This document shows, in pieces, positions 1-50,094 of a stretch of DNA of 64,000 bases (positions within the stretch are counted from its first letter, which is position 1; each line of letters begins with the position of its first letter). The DNA comes from Escherichia coli (GTDB taxonomy: Bacteria > Pseudomonadota > Gammaproteobacteria > Enterobacterales > Enterobacteriaceae). Where the stretch lies: NCBI RefSeq assembly GCF_003991155.1, contig NZ_CP031293.1. The stretch is one strand, 5' to 3'. The position numbers were made by a program, and so were the translations under genes. The notes beneath the pieces are model-generated. The model was not told where the DNA came from. It saw only the letters and a program-made list of their open reading frames with translations, and searched no databases.

Positions 1-391
1 ATAACTCAGTGGCCATTTTAATGTTTTTTAAGCCCATCTGGCATTGCCCCATATAATAAACCAAAGAGAAATCGTTATCGGGAGATAGCATTAAACAGAT
101 ATGATACATGTCGAATGCCTTTTGATAATCTTTCTTCAATTGACAGACGGCGGCATATCCTTTTAGATAGTTATAATTTTGGAAATCATAAATACAGAGA
201 AATTTAAAAAAGAGTTCAGCTTCGTCAAGTCTTCCTTTTTCATAAAAGTTATAAGCGTAAGCATAAACGCCTTCAAGGGTATCCGGGGTTATGCCATGCA
301 GCTCTGCAAGTGTTGCTCCCATACCTAATGCACGTTCGAACTTACTGGCAATTTCTTTATTTTCTTCTAAATCCAGATTTGCGCTTTCCAT
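1..391 (-). CDS. Type III secretion class II chaperone-like protein (SycD/LcrH/SicA/IpgC family, TPR); first ~130 codons, 3' end beyond window start; possibly eicA of the ETT2-associated eip locus
   Basis: Minus-strand frame starts at ATG (plus 389-391) after an AAGGAG Shine-Dalgarno and runs off the window edge. Translation MESANLDLEENKEIASKFERALGMGATLAELHGITPDTLEGVYAYAYNFYEKGRLDEAELFFKFLCIYDF...AAVCQLKK closely resembles SicA/IpgC. Absent from ORF track because no stop lies inside the window. Confidence 0.55.
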   Translation of the reverse strand, partial: MESANLDLEENKEIASKFERALGMGATLAELHGITPDTLEGVYAYAYNFYEKGRLDEAELFFKFLCIYDFQNYNYLKGYAAVCQLKKDYQKAFDMYHICLMLSPDNDFSLVYYMGQCQMGLKNIKMATEL

Positions 392-692
392 CTCTACTCT
401 CTCCTTTCGAACATTCTTTGTTCAGACTTCACCATTTTTTAGAGGGTGGTGATATCAAAATTCGCTCATTTTTATGTCCATCCGTTGGGCTTCGTTTTCT
501 GCATTAAAAACAAGTATTGTTTCAATGAGATAAGATTTTCTATGTGATGAAATGAAAATAATGTAGAGGGAAATTTATCCACAATCCTGATGAACGGGTT
601 CAATTTTGATTGGAATTTAAAAAAGCAGGTGATTTACTGATGTGCGAGCTTAAGTCAGCGGCTGCTGGCCTGAGCGCGGAGGTGTGCGAAAT

Positions 693-986
693 TCACATAT
701 CCGGGCATTCCACCTTACCCAGCGCTTCCCAGTAGTTATTCTGATTATTACGCTCCATCGCCACAATAGCTTCGCGGATATGTTGTTTGTTACTCTCATC
801 AGACAACATTAATTTTTCCCACGCTTCGTCTGATAATGACGCCTGTGGCGTGCAAATTTTACGTAAATCTTGCAATACCGTGGTTTTCTCTTTTGCCGAC
901 TGTAGCGAGCTGAATGGCGACTCGGCCTGAGAAATGGCTGGAAAAGTCAGGAATACGGTAATCATGAGTAGCATCGTTGGCTTCAT
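693..986 (-). CDS. yicS: YicS, small periplasmic protein (97 aa)
   Basis: ORF 693..1055 trimmed to internal Met (MKPTMLLMITVF... signal peptide); matches remembered E. coli YicS. Confidence 0.8.
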   Translation of the reverse strand: MKPTMLLMITVFLTFPAISQAESPFSSLQSAKEKTTVLQDLRKICTPQASLSDEAWEKLMLSDESNKQHIREAIVAMERNNQNNYWEALGKVECPDM

Positions 987-1194
987 AGCGGCAACCTTCT
1001 GCAAATGTGCATCGAATGAAGCATAAGTGTAGTTTGCTTTTACCGCTCTCATCATGCTGTACGAAAGGTGTTTGCGTGGTCAGTAAGAAGTGCCAGTTTT
1101 TTATACCTTTTTCTTCTATTCGATAGCTTTTCGTTTTTTAAATCGTAGTGATCTTGCCATTATAGTCAGTTAATGATTAAAAAAAGGATAAAAA

Positions 1195-2013
1195 ATGAAA
1201 CTGACAACACATCATCTACGGGCGGGGGCCGCATTATTGCTGGCAGGAATTCTGCTGGCAGGTTGCGACCAGAGTAGCAGCGATGCAAAACACATTAAAG
1301 TTGGCGTTATAAATGGCGCAGAACAAGATGTCGCGGAAGTCGCTAAAAAGGTGGCAAAAGAGAAATATGGCCTCGATGTTGAACTGGTAGGATTTAGCGG
1401 TTCGTTGCTACCGAACGATGCGACAAATCATGGCGAGCTTGATGCGAACGTCTTCCAGCATCGGCCCTTTCTTGAACAAGATAATCAGGCGCATGGTTAT
1501 AAACTGGTAGCGGTGGGAAATACGTTTGTCTTCCCTATGGCGGGTTATTCCAAAAAAATCAAAACCGTGGCGCAAATAAAAGAAGGCGCGACAGTGGCGA
1601 TCCCCAACGACCCGACCAACCTTGGTCGCGCGCTTTTACTGTTGCAAAAAGAGAAGCTAATTACTCTGAAAGAGGGAAAAGGGTTATTACCTACCGCACT
1701 GGATATAACCGATAATCCTCGTCATTTGCAGATTATGGAACTCGAGGGGGCGCAGCTCCCGCGCGTACTGGATGATCCCAAAGTTGATGTGGCGATTATC
1801 AGCACCACTTACATTCAGCAGACCGGACTTTCTCCGGTGCACGACAGCGTATTTATTGAAGATAAAAATTCGCCGTATGTGAACATTCTGGTAGCACGGG
1901 AAGATAATAAGAATGCAGAAAACGTGAAGGAATTTCTGCAATCTTATCAATCATCCGAAGTCGCTAAAGCGGCAGAAACCATCTTTAACGGTGGCGCGGT
2001 GCCTGGCTGGTAA
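1195..2013 (+). CDS. nlpA: Lipoprotein-28, methionine-binding lipoprotein family (MetQ paralog)
   Basis: 272 aa; lipobox LAGC after signal peptide; sequence matches E. coli NlpA. Confidence 0.9.
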   Translation: MKLTTHHLRAGAALLLAGILLAGCDQSSSDAKHIKVGVINGAEQDVAEVAKKVAKEKYGLDVELVGFSGSLLPNDATNHGELDANVFQHRPFLEQDNQAHGYKLVAVGNTFVFPMAGYSKKIKTVAQIKEGATVAIPNDPTNLGRALLLLQKEKLITLKEGKGLLPTALDITDNPRHLQIMELEGAQLPRVLDDPKVDVAIISTTYIQQTGLSPVHDSVFIEDKNSPYVNILVAREDNKNAENVKEFLQSYQSSEVAKAAETIFNGGAVPGW

Positions 2014-2016
2014 TTC

Positions 2017-2940
2017 TCACTCATCCCGCGCCGGACGATTTATTTTTCTGGCGCGGCGACGGGAATCCATTGAAATCAAAATCACTGATGACAGAATCAG
2101 AAGCGTTCCCAGCCAGTCCGGTAATGTGAATGTGATCCCCAGCAACAGCAAAGAGAGCAGCGCGCTACTTAATGGTTCTGCACAGCTCAAAATGCTGGCT
2201 TTTGGACCGCCAATTAATTGTGCTCCTTTCAGGTACAGACTAAATGTCAGGGACGTACCAATGACCACCAAATAAAAAAACGCCAGAATCAAACTGCCGT
2301 TAACGACAAAGTTTGTCCCTTGTCTGGCATAAAAAGGCAACAGAATCAGACCGCCGATCAGCATACTCCAGCCGACGACAGGCAACGTGCCATAGCGGGC
2401 AATTAGCGTTGAGGGATAGGTGGTATAGAATGCCGCAGCAAATGCCGAGGCAATGCCCCAGAATAACGCGGCAGGAGAGATCGATAATGACGTCGGATTA
2501 CCGTGTGTCACCAGTAAAAAAGTCCCGACCAGCGATGTCAAAATAGCGCAAAAAACCAGAATGCCCGGGCGCGATTTACGTACCAGTGAGAACCAGGCGA
2601 CGATAATCGTCGGTGAGAGGAATTGCAGCACCGTTGCCGTGGCTGCGTTCGATTTTTCGATGGTTAGCAAAAAAGTGAGCTGTACGGTTAGCGCGCCAAC
2701 CACGGAAAAAATCAGCAGACTAATGGCATCTTTGTGATTGTTAATAATAGAAAAGATTTTATCGCCATGAACAAATGACAGCGTCAGCAGAATCAAACCG
2801 GCGAATATCAAACGCGTCATAGTCAAAAACTGCGACGACATCTGGCTTTGCTCCATGATGTATTGCGCGCAGACCCCTGAACTTCCCCACAACACGGCGG
2901 CAATCAGAACGTTCAGCATCCCCTTTCTGGTGGAACCCAT
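2017..2940 (-). CDS. yicL: EamA/DMT-family inner membrane transporter YicL
   Basis: 307 aa polytopic membrane protein; position between nlpA and setC as in E. coli. Confidence 0.8.
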
Positions 2941-3050
2941 TTTTCCCTCTGCATACTGTTTTGTCGTTTATGTATGCAGGCATGATAGCAAAAATGGCGA
3001 GGATGGCTCTGTTTGCGCCACGCCGATTTTTCTTAGCCCAGACTGGTGAG

Positions 3051-4235
3051 CTAAATATCTTTAATAAACAGCAGGCAAATCATCGCAATACCCAACATCC
3101 CTATCGCCAGCCAGAACAACGCGTGGTAGCTCCAGATTTCAACCATAATTCCGTCAACAGAGCCGGCGATAATCCAGCCGACGCGTGAGGTATTTGCATA
3201 TAACGTTGTCGCAGAGCCTATTTTTTCAGGCATCAGATCCTGAAAATAAAGCATGCCGATACCACAGAGAATACCAAGGAAGATGGCATTAAGAATTTGC
3301 AATTCCAGCTCAACTGCCGGAGTCGTCGCCATGAGTACGCTGGCGTAAAAACACATTCCACTCACGATAGCAATGAGCATTAATAGCCGCTTGCCAATAC
3401 GTTTCATGTAATAGCCTGCGATTAACATCATCGGAATTTCCAGACCGGCAGCGATACCAATCATTTCTCCAGCCAGTTTATCGGTTAGATGCAGTTCATC
3501 AATAATAAATAGCGGCATATTTATCATGTAGAGATTATTCGCCGCCCACATCATTGAACAGACCACAAAAAGTAGCCGCGTATCCCGCTTCCTGTGGGTG
3601 GAGGGTAAAATTTCTATGGGTTGGGTAACGACAGGAATATTTCTTTGTATTGATGGCAAAAACAACCAGACTATCAGTCCGCAAACAACAAATGCGATGG
3701 CAGCGGTGAGATACATCACTTTAAAACTAAATCCCATTGCCAGTTCATAAGCGAGCGGTGGCCCGATAACCCAGGCAAGCGAGATCTGAGCACGTAAAAA
3801 TGTACTGAACATGACCGTCTCACGGCCTGTTCTGTCGGCGTGTTCACGGGCGAGGGCGAACATTTGCGGGTTTGCAGTGGAAGCAAAACTACTCAGAAGT
3901 ACGCCCGTTGAGAGGAGAATGAAGTAGTTGCGATTCCACGCAAAAAGCGTGCAGGCCAGCACTCCAAATAAGCAACATAGCAGGATCAGTAATTTACGGT
4001 CGCCTTGTTTATCGGAGTGCCTTGCCAGAAATTGACTGACCAGAATTCCCATAATAGCGCTACCGGTGAAGAAAAAACCTACCATTATAGGACGGGCTTT
4101 CAGTTCATCTGCGAGGAATATACTTAGGGTGGGAGTCTGGAGAGCGCCCGCAATACCCGTCAGAAAGGCGACAAGTAAAAATGCCGCGGCAGTGAGATCA
4201 AGTATTTTTGATGGAGTAGTAGCCGTTTTTTGCAT
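3051..4235 (-). CDS. setC: Sugar efflux transporter SetC (MFS)
   Basis: 394 aa MFS protein matching E. coli SetC; canonical neighbour of selC. Confidence 0.85.
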   Translation of the reverse strand: MQKTATTPSKILDLTAAAFLLVAFLTGIAGALQTPTLSIFLADELKARPIMVGFFFTGSAIMGILVSQFLARHSDKQGDRKLLILLCCLFGVLACTLFAWNRNYFILLSTGVLLSSFASTANPQMFALAREHADRTGRETVMFSTFLRAQISLAWVIGPPLAYELAMGFSFKVMYLTAAIAFVVCGLIVWLFLPSIQRNIPVVTQPIEILPSTHRKRDTRLLFVVCSMMWAANNLYMINMPLFIIDELHLTDKLAGEMIGIAAGLEIPMMLIAGYYMKRIGKRLLMLIAIVSGMCFYASVLMATTPAVELELQILNAIFLGILCGIGMLYFQDLMPEKIGSATTLYANTSRVGWIIAGSVDGIMVEIWSYHALFWLAIGMLGIAMICLLFIKDI

Positions 4236-4689
4236 TCTTCTGAATCACCGGGCGACAAAATATAACTGAGTTACAAATAAGTACCAGTCGAATGAGTATT
4301 GTATTAAGAATTTTTGAGTATCGCTGATACAACCAGAAAGCAATGCTAGCGCAATATTATAGGGCCAGCAATTGAGATTATTAGCAAAAGCATGTTAAGA
4401 GTTAATCACCGAATTTATATATTAATTATAGTAAGACAATGAGCTATTTTTGATAGTAAAAATAAAACAAATTTATTTGATATATTAAATGAACAAATTA
4501 ATCTTGATGGCAGTCTGATTATTGGTGAAGTTTACAGGTCAGTTTTTTTCGCCAGCGGTTAAAGGAATAGAATCGTCGTATAAAAAAAGGGTGTTCTGGG
4601 GCGTGTAAAACAACATCTTCACCTTAATGGCGATACAGTTGGCTGAGAGTCAGCAGGGGGGCAAATCACCTGCAAATAAACACGGCGCA

Positions 4690-4810
4690 TGCTGGCGCGA
4701 ATATCGCGGATGCGTTCGAGGACAGAAGAACCGACAGGCGGATTCTTCAGCCGCTCATCGTCCATCACAAAACCTTTGACCAGGTATTCCTGAAGCCGAT
4801 TGAATATTGA
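4690..4810 (-). pseudogene. Fragment of a RhuM-family (virulence protein RhuM-like) gene
   Basis: Minus-strand translation ...NRLQEYLVKGFVMDDERLKNPPVGSSVLERIRDIRASMRRV contains the LERIRDIRAS motif remembered from RhuM-family proteins; no intact ORF. Confidence 0.35.
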
Positions 4811-29398: not shown

Positions 29399-30646
29399 TT
29401 AGCCAAATTTAGGTAACACGTTAAAGACGTTACCGAACCAGCATAAAATTACGGTTATACCAAAGAGAATGACAATCGCCGGAATAAGATTGCCGCCCCA
29501 GACTGTGAACATCTGATTGGGAAATTTCTTGCGGGCTTTGATTGCCAGCACTGCGGGAATAATGACCGCCCAGATGGTGGCGCACAGTCCGGCACCGCCG
29601 ATCCCGTAAATAAAGCCGTTCGGGAAGATCAGATACAACAACGCGGGTGGCAGGAAGGTTAACAGCACGGTTTTGAAACGCCCGGCGTGGGAGTTATCAA
29701 TCTTAAACAGATCCGCCAGATAATCGAACAATCCCAGCGTGACACCAAAGAACGAACTGGCAACAGCTAAGTTAGAGAACACCAGCAGGCAAAACTCGAT
29801 AATCCCATGCTGTTTGGTGCCGAGGAATGATTTCACCAGCGAATCAACGTTGCCGCCTGAGGAGATTATCGCCTTAAAGCTTTCTCGCGGGATATTCCCC
29901 ATCGTGCAATAGAGCCAGAAGAGATAAATCACCAGCGCCAGCAGCGAACCGAAGACCACGCTTTTGATTAGCTTATCTTTGCGTTTTCCATAGCAAATAA
30001 TCAGGCTGGGAATATTGCCGTGGAAACCAAATGACGCCAGACACACCGGCAAAGCCATAAAGATATACGGGAAGTAAGACTTACCCGCAGTGGAGCTGGC
30101 TGCATCGCGCAGAATGGAATAATCGGCCTGGAAGAAGAGAGAGCCAAACACGATCACAAAGGAGATAATCTTCAGCCCGAGGAACAATGAGGTAATACGA
30201 CTGGCGGCTAACGAACTTATCCACAATACGCTGGCAACGAAAATGGCTGTGCAGACTCCGACAATACGTGGATTAGCGTGATAACTCAGATTCATTGATA
30301 TCGTTTCGCTAATGATTGCGCCGTTAGCAGAAATATAGGCATAAGTGAGGATATAGAGAACGAAGGCAACGGTAATACCGCTGATAATGTTCCAGGTGTT
30401 ACCGATTAAATCTTTGGCGATGGTGTTAAAACTGGATCCGACGGGATAGTTTAAATTTGCTTCTAATAACAATAACCCGGAATGAAGCATTGAAAACCAG
30501 GCAATGATAAGGATAAAGGCTCCCCAGAAAAACCAGGCACCGGCAAGATCAACAGGTAAAGCAAACATCCCACCGCCAATTACCGTACCGGCTATAACCA
30601 TAACACCCCAAAATGCAGAGTGTTTTTTTTCAGCTTGTTCAGTCAT
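29399..30646 (-). CDS. tnaB: Low-affinity tryptophan permease TnaB
   Basis: 415 aa; matches E. coli TnaB. Confidence 0.9.
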   Translation of the reverse strand: MTEQAEKKHSAFWGVMVIAGTVIGGGMFALPVDLAGAWFFWGAFILIIAWFSMLHSGLLLLEANLNYPVGSSFNTIAKDLIGNTWNIISGITVAFVLYILTYAYISANGAIISETISMNLSYHANPRIVGVCTAIFVASVLWISSLAASRITSLFLGLKIISFVIVFGSLFFQADYSILRDAASSTAGKSYFPYIFMALPVCLASFGFHGNIPSLIICYGKRKDKLIKSVVFGSLLALVIYLFWLYCTMGNIPRESFKAIISSGGNVDSLVKSFLGTKQHGIIEFCLLVFSNLAVASSFFGVTLGLFDYLADLFKIDNSHAGRFKTVLLTFLPPALLYLIFPNGFIYGIGGAGLCATIWAVIIPAVLAIKARKKFPNQMFTVWGGNLIPAIVILFGITVILCWFGNVFNVLPKFG

Positions 30647-30737
30647 GATGCCACCTTTAGATGAAGGCTATTTTTATTATTGAGGATGTAGGGTAAGAGA
30701 GTGGCTAACATCCTTATAGCCACTCTGAGTGTTTTAA

Positions 30738-32153
30738 TTAAACTTCTTTCAGTTTTGCGGTGAAGTGACGCAATACTTTCGGTTCGTAGGTAAAGGTTAA
30801 CCCTTTAATATTCGCCGCGTTCTCTTTCACATGTTTAAAGGCTTCAATAATGAAGTCCATATGTGTTTGAGTATATGTTGCGCGCGGAATGGTTAAACGC
30901 AGCAGTTCAGCCGGGCATGGCAGTTGTTTACCGGTTTTCGGATCGCGGCCTAACAGGAAAGAGCCAATTTCTACCGCACGGATACCGGCGACTTTATACA
31001 GCTCGCAGGCCAGCGCCTGTGCCGGGAACTGATCTGCCGGGATATGCGGCAGTAGTTTACCGGCATCAACGAATGCCGCGTGACCGCCCGCCTGCTGGCA
31101 GACAACGCCAATCTCTTCCAGGCCATCGACCAGATACTGCACCTGCGCAATACGATAAGCCAGCCAGTCCAGATTCATGCCGTCATACAGACCTACCGCC
31201 AGACGCTCCATAGCGCCGCCTTCCAGGCCGCCATATGTCGGGAAGCCTTCCTGCACCACGCAAAGGGTTCTGCATTCGGTGTACACATCAAAGAAGCTGT
31301 CGTCTTTCATGCACAGCAGGCCGCCCATCGGCACCATCGCATCTTTCTTGGCGGACATCGCCAGCATATCGGCATATTTGTAGGTTTCGCGGGTGATTTG
31401 CTCGATGGTCCAGTCTTTGTATTCTGCTTCACGCTGCTTGATGAAATAGGCGTTTTCGGCAAAGCGTGCGGAGTCCATTACCACCGGAATATCGTATTTC
31501 TTCGCGATGCTGTACATCGCTTTTAAGTTTGCCAGTGAAACCGGCTGACCACCTGCGGAGTTACTGGTGATGGTTGCAACGATATACGGCACGTTATTCG
31601 GGCCAACTTCTTCAATACCGCGTTCTAATCCCTCAAGGTCAAAGTTGCCTTTAAAGTCGTAACGCACGCCCGTATCGAAGGCTTCTTTGATATAGACGTT
31701 ACGCACGGTACAGCCGTTAATCTGGCTATGGCCCTGCGTGGTATCAAAGAAATAGTTAGAGAACGCCACCATTTTGCTGCGATCCAGGCCTTTTTCCTGC
31801 TCGCGTTTTTTAATCAGTACCGGAATATAGATTTGCTCTGCACCACGGCCCTGGTGAGTCGGAATAGTGTATTGATAACCAAAGATATTTTTCACTGACT
31901 CGGCTAACGCGTAGTAGCTGCGGCTGCCGCTGTAAGCTTCGTCGCCGCGCATCATCGCGGCCTGCATACTCTGCGTCACCGCCCCGGTACCGCTGTCGGT
32001 CAGTAAATCGATAAACACATCTTCACTATCCAGCAGGAACGGGTTCATGCCGGCTTTAATAATTGCTTCTTCACGATAAGCGCGAGTGGTACGTTTTACT
32101 GGCTCAATAACACGAATGCGGAACGGTTCAGGGAGATGTTTAAAGTTTTCCAT
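30738..32153 (-). CDS. tnaA: Tryptophanase TnaA
   Basis: ORF 30738..32168 trimmed to [11 protein letters not shown] (471 aa); matches E. coli TnaA. Confidence 0.9.
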
Positions 32154-32359
32154 TACGTAATCCTTCATTTATTTTAAGGACAGAAAATTACGGAGATATT
32201 GCAAATGCAATACCCGATAGTTCGCTAAAATATTTGCAAGAGACATCATTTATAAAAATGAATGATAGTCTTTACAAAAGCAGAAATAAGATATGCCAAA
32301 CAGACAGGTTAGATGGAATTCAATCTATTTGACAAAAATGATGGTTACAGAAAGGCAAG

Positions 32360-32434
32360 TTAAGGGTGGTGTTCAACAATCTTGTTGTCGATATTGAACC
32401 ATTTTGAGGTCACACATATATGTAAGATATTCAT
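32360..32434 (-). CDS. tnaC: tna operon leader peptide TnaC (24 aa)
   Basis: Minus-strand ATG AAT ATC TTA CAT ATA TGT GTG ACC TCA AAA TGG TTC AAT ATC GAC AAC AAG ATT GTT … CCT TAA gives MNILHICVTSKWFNIDNKIV..P with Trp12 and Pro24, ~205 bp upstream of tnaA. Confidence 0.75.
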   Translation of the reverse strand: MNILHICVTSKWFNIDNKIVEHHP

Positions 32435-47205: not shown

Positions 47206-47541
47206 ATGTTTAGAACAGAAGACATCATCGATGAGATAACCCAATGGATTGATTCAAATTTACATAAGCCGCTGAAGATAGAGGATGTTGCTGCGCGGGC
47301 AGGATACTCGAGGTGGCATCTTCAGCGGATTTTTGTGCAGGTGAGAGAAATTAGCCTTGGGAAGTACATAAGAGATACGAAACTTAGACTTGCAGCAAAA
47401 GATCTTATCGCGACTAATGAGCCAGTGATGGTTATCGCCTTTAAATATGGATTCGATTCACAACAAACTTTTACTCGGATTTTCTTTAAAAAATATAAAT
47501 TGCCACCATTGAAATATAGGGTAATGACTCCAACTTATTGA
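47206..47541 (+). CDS. MarA/SoxS-like small AraC-family regulator, C-terminus replaced by IS1 insertion
   Basis: 111-aa ORF with two HTH motifs; its last 7 codons lie inside IS1. Confidence 0.6.
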
Positions 47542-48038
47542 TAGTGTTTTATGTTCAGATAATGCCCGATGACTTTGTCATGCAGCTCCACCGATTTTGA
47601 AAACGACAGCGACTTCCGTCCCAGCCGTGCCAGGTGCTGCCTCAGATTCAGGTTATGCCGCTCAATTCGCTGCGTATATCGCTTGCTGATTACGTGCAGC
47701 TTTCCCTTCAGGCGGGATTCATACAGCGGCCAGCCATCCGTCATCCATATCACCACGTCAAAGGGTGACAGCAGGCTCATAAGACGCCCCAGCGTCGCCA
47801 TAGTGCGTTCACCGAATACGTGCGCAACAACCGTCTTCCGGAGCCTGTCATACGCGTAAAACAGCCAGCGCTGGCGCGATTTAGCCCCGACGTATCCCCA
47901 CTGTTCGTCCATTTCCGCGCAGACGATGACGTCACTGCCCGGCTGTATGCGCGAGGTTACCGACTGCGGCCTGAGTTTTTTAAATGGCGGAAAATCGTGT
48001 TGAGGCCAACGCCCATAATGCGGGCGGTTGCCCGGCAT
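47535..48038 (-). CDS. insB: IS1 transposase InsB
   Basis: 167 aa matching IS1 InsB. Confidence 0.9.
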
Positions 48039-48232
48039 CCAACGCCATTCATGGCCATATCAATGATTTTCTGGTGCGTACCGGGTTGAGAAGCGGTGTA
48101 AGTGAACTGCAGTTGCCATGTTTTACGGCAATGAGAGCAGAGATAGCGCTGATGTCCGGCGGTGCTTTTGCCGTTACGCACCACTCCGTCAGTAGCTGAA
48201 CAGGAGGGACAGCTGATAGAAACAGAAGCCAC
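47957..48232 (-). CDS. insA: IS1 InsA
   Basis: 91 aa matching IS1 InsA (zinc finger CPSC…CSHC). Confidence 0.9.
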
Positions 48233-48522
48233 TGGAGCACCTCAAAAACACCATCATACACTAAATCAGTAAGTTGGCAGCATCACCGAAATATAGAAAC
48301 GCGGAAAGGAGAAAAAAACTTCACCAGCCCATGTCTTAAGTTCTGTCAGTATGGCTACAGCCTGTTTGCTGAGTGGCACAAGGTGTGGTGTTCGAATCTT
48401 GGTTCCCCAATGAGAGTTCAGGCGGTGTGGGCAAATAAAAAAGAAAACATAAATAAAACCATCCGACCGTTGGTGGGGCTGGATGGTTATTCATTATTTC
48501 TATGTCACTGAACTTTCATTCA

Positions 48523-49704
48523 TCAGATCTGCTCAGAAAGTGAATCAATGTAGTCAGCATACCACTGCATCATTTCACGGCGACCATCCAGATACTGGGC
48601 ATGATTATAGGTACCTCTGATAGCGTTTTTATCCATATGAGCTAACTGCATTTCAATCCAGGCAGAATTAAAGCCCTGTTCGTGCAGAATTGTACTCATG
48701 GTGTGTCTGAAACCGTGCCCTGTGAGTCTTCCCTTATATCCTAGTAATTCAATGACTTGGTTTATGCTTTCCTTACTAATTGGTTTGCGAGGATCGTTCC
48801 TACCGATAAAGACCAGAGGATGATGTTTTGAGATTGGTTCAAGTTGCTTAAATAGCGCAATGACCTGCTCAGAGAGCGGCACAATATGAGGTCGCTTCAT
48901 CTTCATTACTTCTGCCGGGATCTCCCATAATTTTGTCTCAAAATCGATATCCTCCCAGCGTGCGAAACGCAATTCTTGAGTTCGTACACCAGTTAGCATA
49001 ATGATTTGAGTGGCTGTCTTAGTGATAATACTTCCGGTATAACCCGCCAGATCATTGAGGAAGTGGGGAAGTTCATTAGCAGTAAGAAAGGGAAAATGTA
49101 CTTTTTTCGGTGTAGCTAAAGCACTGGCAAGATCGGGAGCAGGGTTGTAGTTAGCCCGACCAGTAACAATTGCATAGCGGAACACCTCTCCACAGCGCTG
49201 GCGGACCTTACGCATTTTCTCCAGAGCTCCACGTTTTTCCATTTTACGCAATGCTTCCAGTAACTCCATTGGTTTGATTTCAGCAATAGGGCGTTTGCCA
49301 ATATAGGGAAAAATATCTTTTTCAAAGGTATCAATGATTTCATCACGATAGCGTAATGACCACCGATCGGCTTTTGACTGATGCCATTCTCGAGCAACGG
49401 CCTCAAATGTGTTTTTCAAACTCATTTGCAGCGCGATTTTTTCTTCTTTTTTTGTCTCACCCGGATCGCATCCTGCAGCGAGGATTTTCCTAGCTTCACT
49501 GCGTTTTTCGCGAGCGTCGGCTAGAGTTACATCGGGGTATACGCCAATAGAAAGCATCTTTTCTTTGCCAGCAAAGCGGTACTTCATACGCCAATATTTA
49601 GAACCATTAGTGTTAATGAGTAGATACATACCGCCACCATCAGACAGCTTATAGGGCTTTTCTTTTGGTTTTGCGGTTTTCACTTTAATATCAGTTAACG
49701 CCAT
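48523..49704 (-). CDS. P4-type tyrosine integrase (site-specific recombinase)
   Basis: 393 aa; catalytic HGFRHT and C-terminal Tyr region; immediately adjacent to selC. Confidence 0.9.
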   Translation of the reverse strand: MALTDIKVKTAKPKEKPYKLSDGGGMYLLINTNGSKYWRMKYRFAGKEKMLSIGVYPDVTLADAREKRSEARKILAAGCDPGETKKEEKIALQMSLKNTFEAVAREWHQSKADRWSLRYRDEIIDTFEKDIFPYIGKRPIAEIKPMELLEALRKMEKRGALEKMRKVRQRCGEVFRYAIVTGRANYNPAPDLASALATPKKVHFPFLTANELPHFLNDLAGYTGSIITKTATQIIMLTGVRTQELRFARWEDIDFETKLWEIPAEVMKMKRPHIVPLSEQVIALFKQLEPISKHHPLVFIGRNDPRKPISKESINQVIELLGYKGRLTGHGFRHTMSTILHEQGFNSAWIEMQLAHMDKNAIRGTYNHAQYLDGRREMMQWYADYIDSLSEQI

Positions 49705-49998: not shown

Positions 49999-50023
49999 TT
50001 GGCGGAAGATCACAGGAGTCGAA
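49999..50023. repeat. attL core: 25-bp direct repeat overlapping the 3' end of selC
   Basis: Identical to 4873..4897. Confidence 0.8.
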
Positions 50024-50094
50024 CCTGCCCGGGACCGCTGGCGGCCCCAACTGGATTTGAAGTCCAGCCGCCTCACCGGAGACGACGATCTTCC
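50000..50094 (-). tRNA. selC: tRNA-Sec (selenocysteine tRNA)
   Basis: Reverse complement matches the 95-nt E. coli selC sequence GGAAGATCGTCGTCTCCGGTGAGGCGGCTGGACTTCAAATCCAGTTGGGGCCGCCAGCGGTCCCGGGCAGGTTCGACTCCTGTGATCTTCCGCCA. Confidence 0.95.

Follow-up and report, generated by a model that had tools for sequence, protein, structure and literature searches.

An intact eip translocator operon headed by the chaperone gene eicA and probably orphaned from ETT2 in Escherichia coli ST457

The gene cut by the left edge of the 64,000-nucleotide stretch of E. coli DNA analyzed here (contig NZ_CP031293.1; hereafter the window) is very probably the 5′ part of eicA, the chaperone gene of the eip operon, and in the lineage of the window, ST457, this operon would be an intact, orphaned module. 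ST457 is a multidrug-resistant lineage from humans, animals, and water. It keeps the whole translocator operon while the secretion machine presumed to use it is missing. The find of eicA and its island adds nothing new on its own, since good descriptions of both the gene and the island exist and eilA and air are virulence markers that are reported as a matter of routine. The sole new item is the eip-without-ETT2 state, which ST457 shares with about a quarter (~24%) of eip carriers; our literature search returned no report of eip without ETT2, and none that joined ST457, eilA, and ETT2.

The left end of the window contains the following features.

1 to 391, minus strand: 5′ portion of eicA, comprising codons 1-130 of 165 and the first base of codon 131 (ORF translation)
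401 to 405, minus strand: Shine-Dalgarno motif AGGAG, read from the sequence, with the ATG of eicA nine bases downstream
392 to 692, minus strand: upstream region of eicA and right-hand edge of the eip island (GC content, promoter scan, and K-12 alignment)
693 to 986, minus strand: yicS, the first backbone gene, outside the island (RefSeq annotation of a near-identical genome and K-12 alignment)

From an ATG at 391-389 on the minus strand, 130 stop-free codons run up to the window edge, where base 1 opens codon 131. The initial annotation had placed the start of a minus-strand gene here behind a good ribosome-binding site, and both calls hold, with AGGAG at 405-401 nine bases 5′ of the ATG. 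It had also noted AT-rich DNA at the nepI-yicS site of K-12, which agrees with a GC content of 37.4% at 1-692, against 46.7% at 693-4235 and 47.4% in the whole window (38.5% in the upstream region of eicA, 392-692), and with homology to K-12 from 693 onward. The promoter scan of positions 1-1200 gave no sigma-70 consensus match upstream of eicA on the minus strand, and its hits within the eicA ORF were not above shuffle expectation; an EilA-dependent promoter of eicA presumably lies within 392-692. Folding of the minus strand gave no convincing terminator downstream of yicS.

The window ends at codon 130, and we took the 3′ end of eicA and the rest of the operon from near-identical genomes. 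Our reference was strain 2016C-3878 (NZ_CP029747.1; its eip locus extract is L001), which differs from window 1-64000 by one mismatch (within 1-20700) and one IS1 insertion; window positions 1-700 match many complete E. coli chromosomes at 100% identity. The 130 residues encoded in the window are identical to residues 1-130 of WP_000443165.1 from 2016C-3878, a protein of 165 amino acids. An interruption of the frame immediately outside the window had been named as an outcome that would undo the initial reading, and none is present in 2016C-3878, where eicA continues for 35 uninterrupted codons to its stop. The translocator genes expected further left are also there in this genome, among them one for a translocator of the SipB/IpaB type and one for a tip protein of the SipD/IpaD type. 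The order after eicA is a 60-codon ORF, eipB, eipC, eipD, eilA, iatC/air, and nepI, with products of 593 (EipB), 383 (EipC), 449 (EipD), 565 (EilA), and 3321 (IatC/Air) amino acids.

A BLAST alignment of the 2016C-3878 locus with the corresponding K-12 region delimits the eip island to 17.5 kb (L001 3187-20694), standing in for 51 bp of K-12 where the 3′ ends of nepI and yicS face each other; the two genes are convergent in K-12 and lie ~40 bp apart. Homology to K-12 restarts at the stop codon of yicS, window position 693, so that 692 marks the island edge. The eicA-eipD block has a GC content of 38.3%. The island junctions showed neither a tRNA nor an integrase, and no obvious direct repeat, and selC lies 49 kb from the island within the window (50000-50094, minus strand).

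The products of the operon fit a translocator set to different degrees. EipB carries a Pfam SipB domain (E = 2.5e-10) and gives weak matches to IpaB and SipB structures in the PDB; EipD matches the tip-complex family PF06511 (E = 9e-34) and TIGR02553 (E = 2e-39, under the cut-off of that model); and EilA passes the HilA/EilA model of NCBIfam. EipC has no family match in NCBIfam, Pfam, the PDB, or PHROGs, and its assignment as minor translocator comes from gene position and from its name in the literature. RefSeq labels EipC as hypothetical. The 60-codon ORF between eicA and eipB (orf60, MNINGKNASF..., L001 19702-19884, minus strand) is intact in the ST457 allele and has no match in NCBIfam or PHROGs.

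The island of enteroaggregative E. coli (EAEC) 042 reportedly goes back to Ren et al. 2004, and the dependence of the eip genes on EilA is reportedly from Sheikh et al. 2006. The island was treated by Fox et al. 2020 (PMC7058095), and its insertion site, between nepI (yicM) and yicS/nlpA, and its gene order have been described (PMC7058095, PMC11068852). In this literature the locus is named eip or selC-B, with eicA as its chaperone gene, eipB, eipC, and eipD as SPI-1/Ipa-like translocator genes, eaeX/air as an adhesin gene, and eilA as the gene of a HilA-like activator whose targets are the eip genes, air, and two ETT2 genes (PMC7058095, PMC2808357, PMC4210603, PMC11068852); the EilA dependence of the eip genes is covered in two of these reports (PMC7058095, PMC4210603). 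The 042 locus (extract L004) shares with ours both the insertion between yicS and nepI and the order eicA-eipB-eipC-eipD-eilA-air, and window 1-692 aligns to it without gaps at 96.8% identity. Identities at the protein level are 162/165 for EicA, 560/593 for EipB, 322/383 for EipC, 432/449 for EipD, and 560/565 for EilA. As site, gene order, and the 162/165 match of EicA all agree with the published locus of 042, the feature in the window is, by alignment, eicA of eip (selC-B), with both the gene and its island already known. ROD60 of 042 was also considered as the location of eip and ruled out, being an unrelated prophage-like island.

The two alleles differ in several respects. EipB is 94% and EipC 84% identical between them, EipC being of equal length in both (L001 16701-17852 versus L004 20776-21927) and the most divergent eip protein. 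The adhesin IatC/Air/EaeX has 3321 amino acids in ST457 (L001 3391-13356) and 3806 in 042 (L004 25272-36692), a difference in line with published accounts of how its count of Ig-like repeats varies. The 60-codon ORF, intact in ST457, is annotated as frameshifted in 042. Strain 042 has ETT2 at glyU and the lineage of the window is without it.

In 2016C-3878, yqeG, tRNA-Gly, actS, and xdhA are contiguous at the glyU site, with ETT2 absent (L007 38035-40485), where 042 has ~28 kb of ETT2. Of a functional ETT2, made up of apparatus and translocators, the apparatus island at glyU is therefore absent. In 042 itself, RefSeq annotates the SctQ-family gene of ETT2 as frameshifted and the SpaN/EivJ gene as split (L005 10295-11282). 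The empty glyU junction was found at ≥99.9% identity in 43 complete genomes, among which are 25 of the 30 that were listed as having an eicA region of 100% identity; three of these empty-glyU strains are published as ST457 (PMC5430464, PMC9860340).

We then joined the empty junction to 1.2 kb of 042 eivA/sctV in a chimeric query, which found exactly one place in each of the 43 chromosomes. With one place per chromosome, none of the 43 contains ETT2 eivA at megablast sensitivity, and a query of the same design with escV of the locus of enterocyte effacement (LEE) from Sakai likewise detected no LEE escV in them. The absence of an injectisome is thus read from two markers, ETT2 eivA and LEE escV, in chromosome records and at megablast sensitivity; no plasmid was found to carry ETT2 DNA. 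As ETT2 is absent and the LEE was not detected, the eip operon of ST457 is most likely orphaned. The initial annotation had suggested an ETT2-associated eicA-eipBCD locus or another T3SS remnant just outside the window: the locus lies immediately left of it in 2016C-3878, while the association with ETT2, true of EAEC 042 and of most carriers, fails in the lineage of the window, where glyU is empty and chromosomal eivA was not found.

Among 5426 complete E. coli genomes, about 740 contain window 1-700, nearly always in single copy (741 records and 745 places for this query alone), and 721 have matches over at least 80% of the 7.4-kb block from eilA to eicA. A chimera of window 1-700 and eivA matched 1483 records at 2049 places; computed from the two queries, ~562 records hold both eip and eivA, and at least ~179 of the 741 hold eip without the eivA segment. 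Among the matches listed, the eip-only genomes carry eicA alleles between 100% and about 97% identical, so eip has been kept without ETT2 in several lineages. The converse also occurs, as O157:H7 has eivA and the LEE and lacks eip. CUVET19-1993 carries a close eip allele (99.1% identical) together with a full ETT2. A review describes the distribution of eip as closely tied to intact ETT2 (PMC11068852), and by our counts this holds for most carriers, although not for all and not for the lineage of the window.

Parts of the island are also lost on occasion. IS insertions or partial deletions of eip occur in a few genomes. One type of remnant consists of a 5′ piece of the chaperone gene abutting iatC and another of just eilA-eipD; with only such fragments left in a few genomes, the island appears to be undergoing attrition in some lineages. 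One match to the eicA region was a plasmid record.

An operon that persists without its machine might be doing something else. The eip genes could have a role under selection that is independent of an injectisome in ETT2-less lineages, for instance through flagellar type III export or with EicA as a regulatory partner in an EilA-Air adhesion or biofilm circuit, and eip would then be more than a mere adjunct to intact ETT2. In ST457 none of the five genes is truncated, and the at least ~179 of 741 eip records without eivA come from several lineages. We compared the ST457 and 042 alleles by the Nei-Gojobori method, all genes being full length, and obtained dN/dS ratios of 0.046 for eicA, 0.045 for eilA, 0.16 for eipD, 0.31 for eipB, and 0.52 for eipC, with 0.03 to 0.17 for flanking backbone genes. 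At the codon level this shows long-term constraint on the eicA chaperone, and with intact eip genes and strong purifying selection on eicA and eilA the operon could still be functional. However, the comparison spans an ETT2-positive and an ETT2-negative lineage and is therefore silent on the ETT2-less period; ST457 is nearly clonal at the eip locus, so the genes have had little time to decay; and the eip genes of some genomes do carry IS insertions or deletions. We regard an injectisome-independent role for EicA and EipB, EipC, and EipD as possible but unsupported, and as an unlikely explanation of the locus. Should the eip proteins act in ST457 nonetheless, the view of eip as the completion of ETT2 would need revision; should they be inert, ST457 would be a natural control for studies that credit phenotypes to ETT2 or eip.

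The role proposed for EAEC 042 and ST69 is that of a working translocon that serves ETT2: EicA would hand EipB and EipC to the ETT2 needle, and freed EicA might co-activate effectors with the InvF-like EivF. Several observations speak for it, as the island is shared with 042 and encodes near-identical proteins, about three-quarters of eip carriers are also eivA positive, the 99.1% allele of CUVET19-1993 sits beside a full ETT2, and the literature ties eip to intact ETT2 (PMC7058095, PMC11068852). For the lineage of the window we nevertheless find this reading improbable, more so than an injectisome-independent role, given the empty glyU site and the failure to find chromosomal eivA or LEE escV. 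Strain 042 is usually cited as carrying intact ETT2, and even there RefSeq flags the frameshifted SctQ-family gene.

The strong resemblance to class II translocator chaperones that was noticed in the initial annotation was borne out by profile searches and by matches in the PDB, and it goes far beyond chance. In Pfam the 130-residue fragment matches TPR_3 twice (E = 1e-9 and 7e-7), and the full protein scores 113.2 bits on TIGR02552, the SycD/LcrH chaperone model, above the curated cut-off of 104.8. In the PDB search, residues 5-153 align with residues 2-149 of Shigella IpgC at E = 1.3e-39, covering nearly all of EicA with 64 of 148 residues identical. The size (19.2 kDa) and pI (4.6) of EicA are small and acidic, and its gene is directly upstream of the translocator genes both in the near-identical genome and in 042. 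Model score, TPR_3 repeats, full-length alignability, small acidic size, and gene position thus all accord with membership in the class II chaperones of TIGR02552. EicA has no match in PHROGs. With only 130 codons visible and TPR motifs so common, a generic TPR protein or a chance frame in AT-rich DNA might be considered, but this reading is refuted and has practically no chance of being correct, as the IpgC match extends over 149 residues, the TIGR02552 cut-off is exceeded, the Pfam match is to TPR_3 and not to general TPR families, and SipB- and SipD-type genes lie directly downstream.

By these PDB and NCBIfam matches, which settle the family on sequence grounds, EicA is a class II translocator chaperone of the SycD/LcrH/SicA/IpgC type, nearest to the IpgC/SicA branch. 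The top-scoring NCBIfam model is that of SicA, NF011859 (150 bits, E = 6e-44, residues 13-160). The score is under the equivalog cut-off of this model, 184 bits, so by the criterion of NCBI EicA is not a SicA orthologue, and it is best described from its scores as a distinct member of the TIGR02552 family.

Among characterized relatives, IpgC of Shigella flexneri (PDB 3gyz, 3ks2, 6scb) is likewise a TPR chaperone of class II whose gene immediately precedes ipaB-ipaC-ipaD, although it belongs to another species and another secretion system, the plasmid-borne Mxi-Spa. SicA of Salmonella SPI-1 shares the same operon logic, sicA-sipB-sipC-sipD. SycD/LcrH of Yersinia, PcrH of Pseudomonas, and AcrH of Aeromonas share the TIGR02552 family and the TPR fold, but their structures are far more distant matches to EicA (E = 1e-12 to 1e-9 in the PDB search) and serve systems of the Ysc type rather than the Inv-Mxi-Spa type. 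In addition to its role as a chaperone, IpgC co-activates MxiE. We know of no MxiE-like partner of EicA, and such a partner, if encoded by ETT2, could not exist in an ETT2-less strain.

In the reading we favor, that of an intact, orphaned module, eicA would be the first gene of an eicA-(orf60)-eipB-eipC-eipD operon on an island that also carries eilA and air/iatC, and the HilA-like EilA would drive its transcription, as described in the literature. By analogy with IpgC, SicA, and SycD, EicA, an all-TPR protein, would act in the cytoplasm by binding an N-terminal chaperone-binding segment in EipB and probably also in EipC; it would prevent these hydrophobic proteins from aggregating or becoming toxic and would present them to a type III injectisome. 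The sequence PMLAPP at residues 62-67 of EipB fits P/VxLxxP, a pattern we take from the IpgC-IpaB literature to be the chaperone-binding motif. In ST457 the injectisome step would be unable to occur by the usual route, as no injectisome was detected, and the operon would perhaps persist through its linkage to the eilA-air adhesin genes and not as a working translocon.

Further into the window, a mosaic island of ~45 kb (4236-49999) occupies the tRNA-Sec site between setC and selC. It is not the LEE, and 042 has a different, 11-kb element at its selC site. A RhuM-family gene fragment at the setC-side edge (4634-4795) is common to the window and 042. The island has a tyrosine integrase gene beside selC (about 48523-49704, minus strand), CP4-type genes (cbtA/yeeU toxin-antitoxin, antirestriction, and radC), copies of IS3 and IS66, pseudouridine utilization genes, and a sugar-acid cluster that contains otnK. 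A 768-bp IS1 copy at 47520-48287, with a 9-bp target duplication (GAAATATAG), is missing from 2016C-3878, which indicates that the window belongs to another genome of the ST457 type. Within the same island, a tnaC-tnaA-tnaB (tryptophanase) cluster lies at 29399-32434 on the minus strand with IS66 and IS110 remnants at its flanks; as the canonical tna operon of K-12 sits elsewhere, this cluster may be a second copy.
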